Positions 4,625 to 15,782 of a DNA stretch of 42,407 nucleotides are shown here, piece by piece (within the stretch, counting starts at the first letter, position 1; every line of letters begins with the position of its first letter). Location: positions 1-42,407 of IMG/VR virus record IMGVR_UViG_2565956608_000007; one strand, written 5' to 3'. The translations under genes were made by a program, and so were the position numbers. The DNA is from a virus (Duplodnaviria; Heunggongvirae; Uroviricota; Caudoviricetes). The notes below the pieces were generated by a model. That model saw only the letters and a program-made list of their open reading frames with translations, searched no databases and had not been told where the DNA came from.

Positions 4625-5017
4625 TCATACGAAGCGCCTCACAGCCAAAGAAGCGACCACCCGACCGTGAATTTTGATTTCTTTCTGTTCATCAGCATTA
4701 AGGGTGAAAGTTTCGTAATGATGGTTATCAGAGATGATTTTTAATGAGCCATCAGCTAATGGCTCAATTCTCTTAATGAAAAGGCATGGGCGACCAAAAG
4801 CATCCATTGTGTAAACATAAATTCCAGAGGTAAGCGCACTTCCACCGCAATCAACGAAAGCCACAACCTCACATGGTTCGATGGTCGGCTGCATTGAATC
4901 ACCTTCCATCCGGCAGCTTTGAACGCGGTTGCCAAAGTCATTAATGTTGTCAGATCCGAACAGCATCTGAGGCGTTTTAATTGGCTTATTAATTGCGACG
5001 GAATTTTGCATTCTCAT
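4625..5017 (-). CDS. stand-alone S24 (LexA/UmuD-like) peptidase-domain protein
   Basis: 130-aa ORF with GDSMQP serine motif and downstream FIKRI lysine motif typical of S24 peptidases; no HTH domain; GAGG ribosome-binding site. Confidence 0.7.
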   Translation of the reverse strand: MRMQNSVAINKPIKTPQMLFGSDNINDFGNRVQSCRMEGDSMQPTIEPCEVVAFVDCGGSALTSGIYVYTMDAFGRPCLFIKRIEPLADGSLKIISDNHHYETFTLNADEQKEIKIHGRVVASLAVRRFV

Positions 5018-5077
5018 TTCCTCAGGGTGAGTTTGGCCCCACCAAGAAAGGTGTTAATTGAATAATGTTAATTAATT

Positions 5078-5509
5078 TTAAATCTTGTCGGCTTGCTTGC
5101 AGATGGTTTCTTGCAAGTCGTCTAATTTTTCATAAACGATAGTTAGCGTACCGATAGCCGACAATTCCGGAGGCATACAATCCATAGCGTTGGATAAAGC
5201 CATTCTGCAATTGCCAATATCCGCAGACCATGAATTAAGTTGATTGGAAGTTATAATGCTTGTTGGCTCTGTAAAATCACCACACTGCTCGTTTCCTGAA
5301 ATGAGCCACAGAACATCAGAATGAAGAATGTTAGCCAATTGGATTAACTGGTCAGCAAACGGAACAGTTTTTTCCGTTTCCCAGTTGTTAATGGTTTCGG
5401 TTGTTAAACCAAGATGATCAGCCAAAAAATCCTGAGACAGTCGAAGCGAAGATCTTTGATTTAATATTCTTTTGCCGATGGTTTTGGCTACGGTGATTTG
5501 AGTATTCAT
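5078..5509 (-). CDS. HTH (XRE-family) DNA-binding protein, first gene of leftward early operon
   Basis: 143-aa ORF with N-terminal helix-turn-helix (LRLSQDFLADHLGLTTETINNWE); preceded by operator-like palindromes. Confidence 0.7.
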   Translation of the reverse strand: MNTQITVAKTIGKRILNQRSSLRLSQDFLADHLGLTTETINNWETEKTVPFADQLIQLANILHSDVLWLISGNEQCGDFTEPTSIITSNQLNSWSADIGNCRMALSNAMDCMPPELSAIGTLTIVYEKLDDLQETICKQADKI

Positions 5510-5552
5510 TTCATTGGCTCCGTTGTTTGCCGATGAATGAACTTTAAGTCAT

Positions 5553-5572
5553 GCAATAACTTATTGCAATAA
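5553..5572. promoter_or_regulatory. OL-like operator: overlapping palindromes GCAATAAcTTATTGC and TTATTGCAATAA
   Basis: Perfect 12-bp palindrome at 5561-5572 and 15-bp near-palindrome at 5553-5567 upstream of the leftward operon; the TTATTGCA motif recurs once in the cI-cro intergenic region (6457-6464). Confidence 0.5.
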
Positions 5573-5669
5573 CAAAACTTATTTTTCTTTTGCGATTTAG
5601 TTTAATGCATTGATTTTTTTGATTAAATTTTGTTATTAAACTGCATACTTACAGCTACAGACAAAGAAA

Positions 5670-5689
5670 AAGCCGCTTAAAAGCGGCTT
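5670..5689 (-). terminator. Rho-independent terminator downstream of the repressor gene
   Basis: AAGCCGCTT/AAGCGGCTT inverted repeat, followed on the minus strand by a T-rich tract. Confidence 0.5.
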
Positions 5690-5710
5690 CAAAAGGTGGG
5701 GTGTTGAAGG

Positions 5711-6409
5711 TTAGAGCCTATTGTAATTGATTGATTCATGCATTATGGCTTTACCCATCACGTAAAGGTCATCTTGGTTTTCTTCCGTGATATACCATTT
5801 CTCATATGCCGGATTATCCGATAAGACTGCCAGCCTGTTTCCCTGCATCTGGAGACGTTTTAGGTGAAATGTTTTACCAAAAACAAAAACATACACACCA
5901 TCCGTTAGAAAGTGTCGGACGGAAATGTCTACGAAGACACGATCACCGGAATTGAACGTGCTGGCCATGCTGTCGCCATTGACGGTCATTACTTTTACGA
6001 CATCTTCACTACGATTCCCGAAGAGGGATTTTGCATGTTGAGTCGTGAACTCAATAGCGTGTAAAACCTCCACATATTCTGAAAGCATGAACGTGCCAGG
6101 CCCTGCACTCACTGAAAGGTCAAGAACCTCGACCCTGAATATGCCAGCGTTATCCTTTACCTCCCTTTCGGGCATGGTCTCTATCACATAGCCCTGTCTA
6201 TGAGGCACATGATTTTTTCCAGTTGATAGCCATTCAGGGCTCACACCCAGCGCATTAGCAATCTCAACCAACTTACGTGTTGTGTTGGTTTTGCCTGCAA
6301 CAAGACGCCAGATAGCTGGTTGCGAAACCCCAACTTTCATCGCTAATTCTGCCTGTGTAAGGCCTGCGTCAACCATCGCTTTTTGAAGACGATCTGAGAA
6401 TGTGTTCAT
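5711..6409 (-). CDS. cI: CI-like prophage repressor (HTH + S24 autopeptidase domain)
   Basis: N-terminal HTH (LTQAELAMKVGVSQPAIWRL) and C-terminal S24 motifs (GDSMAS ... FHLKRL); divergent from Cro-like gene. Confidence 0.85.
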   Translation of the reverse strand: MNTFSDRLQKAMVDAGLTQAELAMKVGVSQPAIWRLVAGKTNTTRKLVEIANALGVSPEWLSTGKNHVPHRQGYVIETMPEREVKDNAGIFRVEVLDLSVSAGPGTFMLSEYVEVLHAIEFTTQHAKSLFGNRSEDVVKVMTVNGDSMASTFNSGDRVFVDISVRHFLTDGVYVFVFGKTFHLKRLQMQGNRLAVLSDNPAYEKWYITEENQDDLYVMGKAIMHESINYNRL

Positions 6410-6518
6410 ACCAATAAGCCTATACAAAAAGTTATTAAGTGGCAAATACGATAAGTTATTGCATAAAGTTATTCAAGGCTATACTCTTTCCCTATGTTCA
6501 ATAACTTTTGGTATTTTT
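6410..6518. promoter_or_regulatory. cI-cro intergenic operator/promoter region (OR-like)
   Basis: Four copies of AGTTATT/AATAACT (6430-6436, 6454-6460, 6467-6473, inverted at 6500-6506) between divergent repressor genes. Confidence 0.55.
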
Positions 6519-6746
6519 ATGATCAATCAACATGTCAAGAGAGCTATCGATATTCTCGGCGGCCAAGCTGCATTAGCAAGGGCGTGCGGGGTTACTCAAC
6601 CGGCTGTATTTCGCTGGCTTAATGGTAGCCGGGTTAAGGCTGATCATGTCATGTCCATTGTTAAAGCTACTGGTGGTGAAGTTAAAGCCTACCAGATCCG
6701 CCCAGACCTTCCAGATACATTCCCTCACCCGGGCAATGAGGTGTGA
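6519..6746 (+). CDS. cro: Cro-like / YdaS-like HTH protein
   Basis: 75-aa product MINQHVKRAIDILGGQAALARACGVTQPAVFRWLNG; divergent from cI; start taken at internal ATG to avoid overlapping the cI start. Confidence 0.65.
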   Translation: MINQHVKRAIDILGGQAALARACGVTQPAVFRWLNGSRVKADHVMSIVKATGGEVKAYQIRPDLPDTFPHPGNEV

Positions 6747-6747
6747 T

Positions 6748-6957
6748 ATGTCGCACTCAATCACTACCGAAAACCAAATTAAGCCATTGGATATCGATTA
6801 TCGCGATCCGCGCGGTGTGATTGTGCATGTCACCGGCTGGAATCGGGATAAGCAGCAGGTGTATTTCACCAGGCAGAATTATCCGCATGAATGCATGCAG
6901 CCTGTCTGGAAGTTCCAACAATATTTTACAAAGGTCTCGGAGGCGCAAAATGCGTGA
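6748..6957 (+). CDS. hypothetical protein
   Basis: 69-aa ORF with GAGG ribosome-binding site directly after the cro stop. Confidence 0.5.
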   Translation: MSHSITTENQIKPLDIDYRDPRGVIVHVTGWNRDKQQVYFTRQNYPHECMQPVWKFQQYFTKVSEAQNA

Positions 6958-7315
6958 TTACGGAAAGGTGTCGTCTGAGTTTTGGTTAGACCAGAACGGC
7001 AACAAATGGAAAGTGCCCACGATCAAAGGTCGCCTGAAAATGCGCGTACCCTGCCATCGCGCACTACGCGAATTTGTTCTTTGGCGCGACGGTTTCAAAT
7101 GCCGTCATTGTGGTAGTCAAGACCGCATTAAATTGGTCGCAGATCACATTGTATCGCGACGTAACGGTGGGGCTCACCACCCAGACAACATGCAGTGTTT
7201 GTGTGATTCCTGCAATGCGCGCAAGGCATCCCTGGTTGATGCCAAATTCCAGCCAAGGCCTGATGTAAGTGAGGTTATTTGTTCTGATGGAGGGGTGATT
7301 GATGGCACGCATTAG
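6950..7315 (+). CDS. HNH endonuclease
   Basis: Cys/His motif CRHCG ... DHIVSRRNGGAHHPDNMQCLCDSCNARK; GGAGG ribosome-binding site. Confidence 0.75.
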   Translation: MRDYGKVSSEFWLDQNGNKWKVPTIKGRLKMRVPCHRALREFVLWRDGFKCRHCGSQDRIKLVADHIVSRRNGGAHHPDNMQCLCDSCNARKASLVDAKFQPRPDVSEVICSDGGVIDGTH

Positions 7316-15234: not shown

Positions 15235-15684
15235 ATGAAAATTCAATCTATTACAATCGCTTTTCTGGTGGCGATATCGTCACCCTCATACTCAGCCTTT
15301 CAGGAAAGGGAATACAATACCTGGTATCAGAAAGATGCAGTGCTTTACGACATTACGCAGACCTCAGAGGGATTGCCTGTCATGATAAGCATCTCTCAAC
15401 CCGGGAGGGGAGCAGCAAATATGCTGGTGTCCTATATGTCCGATGGCAGTTGTGGAGATAAGAAGGAGTTGCTTAATGTGAATGGGAAGGATGTTCCTGC
15501 AACTTACAGGTGTGTATCGGTCGGGGCAAACAGGATTGAGCACTTTGCAGTTAATGATGCCGAAAAGGTCAATGAGATGGTTAACCACCTCAAGTCAGAT
15601 TTCACTTTGCTGCTTCAGAACGATATCAAAGTCTGGGCTGCGAACATAAAGACGCCGAAGTATGGCATAGCACCAAGATTTTAA
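15235..15684 (+). CDS. secreted protein of unknown function (cargo)
   Basis: 149-aa ORF with N-terminal signal peptide MKIQSITIAFLVAISSPSYSA; sits in a visibly AT-rich segment and is followed by a terminator. Confidence 0.6.
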   Translation: MKIQSITIAFLVAISSPSYSAFQEREYNTWYQKDAVLYDITQTSEGLPVMISISQPGRGAANMLVSYMSDGSCGDKKELLNVNGKDVPATYRCVSVGANRIEHFAVNDAEKVNEMVNHLKSDFTLLLQNDIKVWAANIKTPKYGIAPRF

Positions 15685-15718: not shown

Positions 15719-15736
15719 AATGGCAATAACATTGGT

Positions 15737-15782
15737 TATCCCCTGAAAGGGATAAAGCACTGAATATCCCTTTCAGGGGATA
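15737..15782. repeat. perfect 18-bp inverted repeat (TATCCCCTGAAAGGGATA ... TATCCCTTTCAGGGGATA) with 10-bp spacer
   Basis: Second arm is the exact reverse complement of the first; each arm is itself a near-palindrome. Confidence 0.7.

Follow-up and report, generated by a model that had tools for sequence, protein, structure and literature searches.

Candidate operators shared by the two early promoters of a lambda-like immunity cassette in an LMessi-related prophage

This study concerns the immunity region of a tailed-phage DNA, IMG/VR record IMGVR_UViG_2565956608_000007, which was analysed over its whole length of 42,407 nucleotides (nt; hereafter the window). The window is a prophage with an integrase gene, a leftward early operon, a repressor/cro pair, replication and lysis genes, and a structural module. 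From left to right, the locus comprises the leftward operon, its promoter with associated sites, a terminator, the repressor gene cI, a divergent region with further sites, and cro; its layout is lambda-like. Short words recur on both sides of cI, and they are very probably operators of the cassette's own regulators, a 434-type cI and probably also Cro, placed at both early promoters. A preliminary description of this DNA had proposed that one repressor controls both early promoters, as in lambda. Sequence comparison supports the proposal: the sites are invariant among loci with the same cI; the left sites are exchanged in one cassette with cI, the right operator region (OR) and the helix-turn-helix (HTH) of Cro; and the left sites remain linked to cI where the first leftward gene is a different one.

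Repeated words at the two early promoters

The words lie in two stretches of non-coding DNA. The left stretch (5510-5710) is situated upstream of the leftward operon, which extends from the promoter PL to int; an Rfam search of this region returned no family, and an open reading frame (ORF) search found none of at least 20 amino acids (aa). The divergent cI-cro region (6410-6518; 109 nt) holds three strict sites, named O-A, O-B and O-C, and one weak site, copy 3. The left operator region (OL) holds OL2 and OL1 and is about 0.87 kb from OR. The palindromes noted earlier upstream of the leftward operon were located at 5553-5567 (GCAATAACTTATTGC) and 5561-5572 (TTATTGCAATAA), and the repeat AAGTTATT was recovered between cI and cro at 6429, 6453 and 6466 on the plus strand and at 6500 on the minus strand. 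The same word occurs in the left region at 5555, on the minus strand.

A motif search across the prophage, which the preliminary description had suggested, placed five of the nine AAGTTATT copies within about 310 nt of non-coding DNA. Nine copies in the whole window compare with 1.13 expected, and this number was reached in none of 100 shuffles. For the shorter word GTTATT/AATAAC, seven copies were counted in the two intergenic regions against 0.42 expected (seven reached in 0 of 2000 shuffles). The longest word common to both regions is 14 nt long: ATGCAATAACTTAT, at 5551-5564, is the reverse complement of 6451-6464, and a shared word of this length was reached in 1 of 2000 dinucleotide-preserving shuffles. 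Positions 5555-5584 and 6444-6473 form a 30-nt stretch with 80% complementarity. The strict pattern ATAM-N4-WGTTATT has five matches in the window against 0.06 expected, and four of these lie in the two regions; because the pattern was written after the sites had been seen, this count describes the sites and does not test them.

The fifth strict match, ATAACCAATGTTATT at 15725-15739 (arms ATAA/TTAT), immediately follows the terminator of an accessory gene (15235-15684), which is AT-rich and encodes a 149-aa protein with a signal-like N-terminus. It was considered as an immunity operator and set aside. Its exact 22-mer occurs in seven IMG/VR contigs, and since none of them carries this cI, the match is probably unrelated to immunity. 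A scan of the viral collection with ATACNNNNAGTTATTGCA yielded chance matches; among the matches listed, several motif copies were present only in contigs that were known to have the cassette of the window.

Conservation and exchange of the immunity cassette

The closest relatives of the locus are Escherichia phage LMessi (PP925823; L001 among the loci compared, which are designated by L and a number), whose cassette DNA is 96% identical, and an Enterobacter prophage. Proteins 100% identical to the cI of the window are encoded in Enterobacter intestinihominis and in about 20 viral contigs of IMG/VR. A backbone consisting of an S24 gene, the PL leader, a DUF4222 gene and a primase-helicase gene is common to LMessi, phage CharmingMan and the Escherichia coli G3/10 prophage.

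Loci of the same immunity represent about four sequence variants (the window type, L034-38, L039 and L040), with cI identities of 87-100%. At OR, 20 of the 109 positions vary among them, and only one of these 20 falls within the 42 positions of O-A, O-B and O-C (hypergeometric P = 3e-4). In the left region, 50 of the 127 non-coding positions of the cassette vary, with none of the 50 within 5555-5583 (hypergeometric P = 4e-8). The invariant block there is 5555-5586, and positions 5552 and 5554, just outside it, vary. O-C is likewise bracketed by variable positions, 6498 and 6499 on one side and 6517 and 6518 on the other. A metagenome scan with the cI N-terminal domain returned six more identical cassettes, which add no divergence to this footprint, and many related recognition helices accompanied by clean dyads.

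Heteroimmune relatives show which genes the sites belong to. In both CharmingMan and the G3/10 prophage, homology to the window breaks off at 5541; it is restored at 6735 in the former and at 6720 in the latter. The swapped block therefore holds the left sites, cI, OR and the Cro HTH. Four other cassettes each have a motif of their own that is common to OL and OR. For example, TACC-N4-GGTA in 8.3 kb of CharmingMan has two copies at OL, three at OR and one elsewhere. L007 and L094 carry GGTATATTT-type words at both OL and OR, L043 has three copies of ATAG-N6-CTAT at OR and as many downstream of cI, and the G3/10 prophage cassette is characterized by AATAC/GTATT. In L041 and L008, ATAS-N6-STAT is confined to OR and a pair 1.1-1.5 kb downstream of cI. 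A matrix of k-mers shared between OR and OL was enriched on its diagonal and between cassettes of the same type. A comparison of OR with the DNA downstream of cI by longest exact match, made over 21 loci, was too insensitive for degenerate operators and was replaced by sequence reading, the k-mer matrix and dyad scans.

L041 and L008, relatives with the recognition helix QPTIWRL, have additional genes, 1.1-1.5 kb in all, that separate cI from the OL pair (L041 3200-4700; L008 3200-4260). These genes occupy the position of rexAB in lambda, and one of those in L041 is preceded by its own inverted repeats, TGCAAGCAC/GTGCTTGCA.

The left sites can also be separated from the gene next to them. In L024, which has an identical cI and the same left sites, the PL operon begins with the 97-aa non-HTH gene known from the G3/10 prophage; L039 keeps the left sites with yet another first PL gene. 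Three different first leftward genes accompany the same cI and OL, and one and the same first gene accompanies two different cassettes. Because the sites and the first PL gene dissociate in both directions, the sites belong with cI and cro rather than with the HTH gene of the window. Operators, the DNA-binding domain of the repressor, and Cro are inherited together as an immunity unit.

These exchanges bear on the view that the left palindromes are an autoregulatory operator of the 143-aa HTH protein and not a cI/Cro operator. The palindromes lie about 45 nt upstream of the gene for this protein, which has Phage_CI_repr and HTH_19 domains, and small HTH regulators often bind their own promoters. 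However, L024 and L039 retain the sites next to other genes, CharmingMan and the G3/10 prophage have no HTH gene yet carry dyads there that match their own OR, and the motif recurs four times between cI and cro. Autoregulation of this kind is thus very improbable. Equally hard to credit is the notion that the two regions resemble each other merely as paralogous AT-rich promoters (-35/-10 and UP-like elements) or by chance, with no site for a specific regulator. The regions are AT-rich, the -35 hexamer TTGCA is present in both 30-nt modules, and exact words of 12-13 nt do occur in shuffles; the enrichment observed, however, was exceeded in only 0-1 of 2000 shuffles. In addition, O-A and O-C lie off any -35 element yet match the 15-nt pattern in full and do not vary between flanks that do, and a change of cassette brings an entirely different motif, whereas the host RNA polymerase stays the same.

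Table 1. Features of the immunity region and the first genes of the leftward operon. Promoters are proposed from sequence.
Feature	Positions	Strand	Sequence or family	Description
Immunity cassette	5542-6734	.		Left operators, PL core, cI terminator, cI, OR, and cro except its last few codons
O-A (OR3-like)	6421-6436	+	TATACAAAAAGTTATT	Strict pattern; invariant
O-B (OR2-like)	6445-6460	+	AATACGATAAGTTATT	Strict pattern; invariant except for one base in one locus
Copy 3, weak	6458-6473	+	ATTGCATAAAGTTATT	Over PR -35 and spacer; 13 bp from O-B
O-C	6500-6515	-	AATACCAAAAGTTATT	In cro leader; strict pattern; invariant
OL2, strong	5568-5583	-	AATAAGTTTTGTTATT	Strict pattern; invariant in all same-cI loci
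OL1, weaker	5555-5570	-	ATTGCAATAAGTTATT	One consensus half; covers PL -35 and start of spacer
PL (putative)	5541-5569	-		-35 TTGCAA (5564-5569), 17-nt spacer, -10 TAAAGT (5541-5546)
PR (putative)	6459-6485	+		-35 TTGCAT (6459-6464), -10 TATACT (6480-6485)
PRM (putative)	6417-6445	-		-35 TTGCCA (6440-6445), 17-nt spacer, -10 TAGGCT (6417-6422)
Intrinsic terminator after cI	5669-5690	-		Terminator scan: nine pairs, then T-run; separates cI transcript from PL
5' leader, ribosome-binding site and ATG of first PL gene	5505-5541	-		37 nt; left edge of cassette
cI repressor	5711-6409	-	Pfam HTH_3 (4e-10), Peptidase_S24 (2e-16)	232 aa
Cro	6519-6746	+	Pfam YdaS_toxin (7e-19), P22_Cro (2e-7)	75 aa
First PL gene, HTH protein	5081-5509	-	Pfam HTH_19, Phage_CI_repr; phrog_4836 ('CII-like')	143 aa
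Second PL gene, stand-alone S24 protein	4628-5017	-	phrog_6201 (E 6e-41)	130 aa

Operator unit, register and promoters

The most likely operator unit is a 14-base-pair (bp) pseudo-dyad, ATA(C/A)-N6-TTAT, or 16 bp with the flanking A/T. In its full form it reads (A)ATA(C/A)-N6-TTAT(T), 14-16 bp long, with 4-bp arms and a 6-bp centre. When the copies are aligned, they make up a 16-mer in which one half (AAGTTATT) is nearly invariant and the other is weaker. In the proposed register, the 14-bp 4-6-4 geometry is present at O-A, O-B, O-C and OL2, and the ATAA/TTAT arms of OL2 form a perfect dyad around a 6-bp spacer. This register is supported by the gapless alignment of the cI N-terminal domain with the 434 repressor, whose sites are 14 bp long (cI residues 4-64 on 434 residues 2-62; phmmer E 6e-13). 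It is also supported by relatives with a near-identical helix (QPTIWRL, compared with QPAIWRL here), many of which have ATAC-N6-GTAT, a perfect dyad, in the place that corresponds to O-A.

The half-site TTATTG/CAATAA, which the preliminary description had named as common to both regions, proved to be close but shifted. It occurs in two of the four OR copies; its G/C base is absent from the other two, and at O-C (6499) this base is T in three same-cI relatives. What is invariant is (A)AGTTATT, whereas the G/C base varies. The 15-bp palindrome (7-1-7) proposed earlier was rejected as the primary unit: position 5554 within it changes from C to A in L039, and the variable position 5552 is just beyond its left end. 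Both the 15-bp and the 12-bp palindrome have a 1-bp arm spacing or divergent arms, unlike the 4-6-4 geometry of the relatives, and they look like by-products of packed half-sites and the self-complementary -35 hexamer TTGCAA. A third left-hand copy at 5622-5637 (GTTATT at 5632-5637) was also dismissed, as it is not conserved in same-cI loci.

Another reading takes the words for direct repeats of AAGTTATT(GCA), with spacings of 13 and 24 nt, that would be recognized in the manner of P2 C or by Cro alone. Repressors that bind direct repeats are known, as with P2 C (PMC2995052). Three OR copies and both left copies are oriented as direct repeats, conservation is much stronger in the right half than in the left, PL and the rightward promoter PR each have the 13-nt tandem, and the Cro HTH is also within the swapped cassette. 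Still, cI has a 434-type domain and is not a P2 C-type protein, close relatives have clean 4-6-4 dyads at homologous positions, O-C is inverted relative to the other copies, and OL2 is a dyad with perfect arms. A direct-repeat mode of recognition is therefore improbable, and the pseudo-dyad is used as the unit below.

Two of the OR sites occupy lambda-like positions relative to the putative promoters. O-A sits within the proposed spacer of PRM, the promoter for repressor maintenance, which is the OR3 position. O-B, 24 bp away from centre to centre, adjoins the PRM -35 element and overlaps the PR -35 element, which is the OR2 position. Copy 3 and O-B are arranged like OL1 and OL2, so that a 13-bp two-site module is present at both PR and PL. 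The same motif thus occurs at the second promoter, that of the leftward operon, where OL2 and OL1 (5555-5583) overlap the putative PL and OL2 adjoins its -35 element. OL1 is the core of the palindromes in the preliminary description, and 15 of its 16 positions match 6458-6473. O-C ends 3 nt ahead of the cro ATG, downstream of the probable PR start; L041 and L008 have AATAC-type elements at this position.

Because a sigma-70 scan called no promoter at its threshold, the positions of PL, PR and PRM were assigned by hand and are working hypotheses. PL scores 8/12, below the threshold of the tool; at an equal distance from the conserved leader, -35/-10 hexamers are also present in CharmingMan and the G3/10 prophage. 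The PR -10 element is TATAAT in L039 and L040. The PRM -10 element ends 7 nt ahead of the cI ATG, and a PRM-like arrangement is found in five cassettes (including L041, L008, L043 and L231), with spacers of 16-17 nt, a -10 element 6-8 nt before the ATG, and an OR3-like site within the spacer. The short distance from the -10 element to the ATG in these five cassettes suggests that cI mRNA is leaderless across this group of phages, as in lambda.

CharmingMan and the G3/10 prophage share the leader of the first PL gene at 94-97% identity, and the flanking DNA differs on both sides. This leader, kept across three heteroimmune phages before different first genes, appears to be the recombination joint between the immunity cassette and the PL operon.

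Several observations weigh against the assignment of these sites to cI and Cro as drawn here. The conservation footprint rests on about four independent sequence variants. Copy 3 is altered at one arm base in L040 and at two spacer bases in L039, so it is evidently less constrained than the other sites. The half-site is not matched by TTGC, the left arm of both OL1 and copy 3, and sites 13 bp apart overlap by 1-3 bp, which would be awkward for two dimers bound together. An alternative register, ATAA-GTTATT-GCAT/ATGC-AATAAC-TTAT, corresponds to the exact 14-mer common to OL and OR; it is disfavoured on the same grounds as the palindromes, namely the 4-6-4 geometry of the relatives. With respect to the promoters, the failure of the sigma-70 scan to call any of them counts here too, and the spacer of the putative PR is unusually short (15 nt), where relatives have TTGCCx-17-TATTAT. 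Finally, a literature search for related phages (the LMessi-like group and CharmingMan) found no published operator or regulation data.

Regulatory proteins and relation to known switches

The cI protein keeps the equivalents of 434 residues Q17, Q28, K38 and R43, and Q29, S30 and Q33 are replaced by P, A and R. Co-crystal work on 434 is said to have defined the base contacts of individual repressor residues. The cI translation contains a candidate cleavage site, Ala102-Gly103 (VSA102-G103PG), together with the GDSM serine and the HLKRL lysine of an S24 peptidase domain; with these elements present, SOS-driven self-cleavage of cI is plausible. Cro is of the all-alpha YdaS/P22-Cro type, and its nearest solved structures are Xfaso-1 Cro (3bd1) and XPH1. 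The public annotation of LMessi lacks cro: over the YdaS/P22_Cro ORF it has two other-frame or extended ORFs, which correspond to 6494-6622 and 6622-6957 of the window (LMessi 5896-6359; window 6494-6957). The LMessi annotation also places a 49-aa coding sequence across the OL region (locus 4945-5094), where the window has no ORF of at least 20 aa.

The 130-aa S24 protein of the leftward operon is 31% identical to the C-terminal domain of cI; it retains the GDSM serine and the lysine and lacks a DNA-binding domain. Heteroimmune relatives also have the S24 gene, and the HTH gene before it can be replaced by that of a 97-101-aa protein without a family match. The HTH and S24 pair looks like a split cI-like protein, or like a repressor-domain paralogue under repressor control. 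An N-type antiterminator was sought as the first PL gene; this position is taken by the 143-aa HTH protein, and no N homologue was recognized. A Q-like antiterminator is annotated in LMessi. Farther to the right, an HNH endonuclease gene (6950-7312, plus strand; Pfam HNH 1e-9) lies between the DUF4222 gene and the replication genes; it appears to be an insertion that is not present in LMessi, because LMessi homology ends at about 6972.

The locus shares with lambda the gene order of leftward operon, OL/PL, cI, OR and cro, the use of one motif at both early promoters, a spacing of 24 bp between adjacent OR sites, one site in the PRM spacer and another adjoining the PRM -35 element, a probably leaderless cI mRNA, and a cI with an S24 self-cleavage domain. 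It differs in several respects. Lambda operator sites are 17 bp long, whereas those here are 14-16 bp with the form ATA(C/A)-N6-TTAT. No clean OR1-type site is present between the -35 and -10 elements of PR, where a half-matched site lies 13 bp from O-B; an extra site is located in the cro leader; and OL consists of one strong and one weak site, only about 0.87 kb from OR. Moreover, the first PL gene encodes an HTH protein, and Cro is of a different fold type.

The DNA-binding domain of the 434 repressor is the closest to that of cI among solved structures. In 434, the repressor recognizes OL and OR sites of 14 bp, in which the outer 4+4 bases are conserved and the centre is not contacted (PMC1636474), and the 4-6-4 geometry of the present sites matches this arrangement. 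The half-site here is ATAC/ATAA and not ACAA, and the sites are more asymmetric and more closely packed. Because both the half-site and three recognition-helix residues differ, the immunity type is not that of 434. In the Stx phage 933W, the repressor binds multiple OL and OR sites and departs from the lambda pattern of affinity and cooperativity (PMC3317979). This lambdoid phage likewise has multiple OL/OR sites and shows that such variants of the paradigm have already been documented; its repressor sequence and operators are unlike those described here. LMessi carries the same cassette as the window, whereas CharmingMan and the G3/10 prophage carry other cI/cro/operator cassettes on the shared backbone. 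Judged by its sequence, the locus has the structural features of the lambdoid design and the 434-type site geometry; it does not have the 434 half-site or a recognizable N gene.

From the observed sites, the degree to which they are conserved, their joint inheritance with cI and cro, and the protein family assignments, we infer a switch, including its binding protein, exact register, promoter positions, activation and looping, that would work as follows. In the lysogen, cI dimers would occupy the sites, so that PR and PL are off and PRM is regulated. OL1 and OL2 would cover the -35 element and spacer of PL, which would drive the leftward operon to int, and looping between OL and OR over about 0.87 kb is possible. 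RecA-stimulated self-cleavage of cI at Ala102-Gly103 would then release the sites.

A departure from this scheme has a small but real chance of being correct: with no canonical OR1, strongly asymmetric sites at a spacing of 13 bp at both PL and PR, and an additional, fully conserved operator that covers the cro leader and ribosome-binding site, the switch might be non-standard, and the free S24 domain could act on cI. The 13-bp pairs, the missing clean OR1, the operator in the cro leader, and the HTH and S24 genes at the head of the leftward operon are the grounds for allowing this. For example, free S24 domain made from PL after release might mix into cI oligomers. If so, the locus would be a lambdoid switch with feedback by a repressor-controlled mimic of a repressor domain.

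In sum, the locus is very probably an ordinary, previously uncharacterized example of the textbook lambdoid switch, a design in which cI binds at multiple OL and OR sites, and the result leaves the understanding of phage switches unchanged. It provides an operator map, with sites, a probable half-site, putative promoters and cassette boundaries, for the LMessi-like temperate phages of Enterobacter and Escherichia. The helices and half-sites of the related cassettes pair as QPTIWRL with ATAC, QPSVWKL (L043) with ATAG, and QPAIWRL (the window) with ATAC/ATAA. Heteroimmune 434-type cassettes with clean dyads could serve as a small natural data set that relates the residues of the recognition helix to the bases of the half-site.

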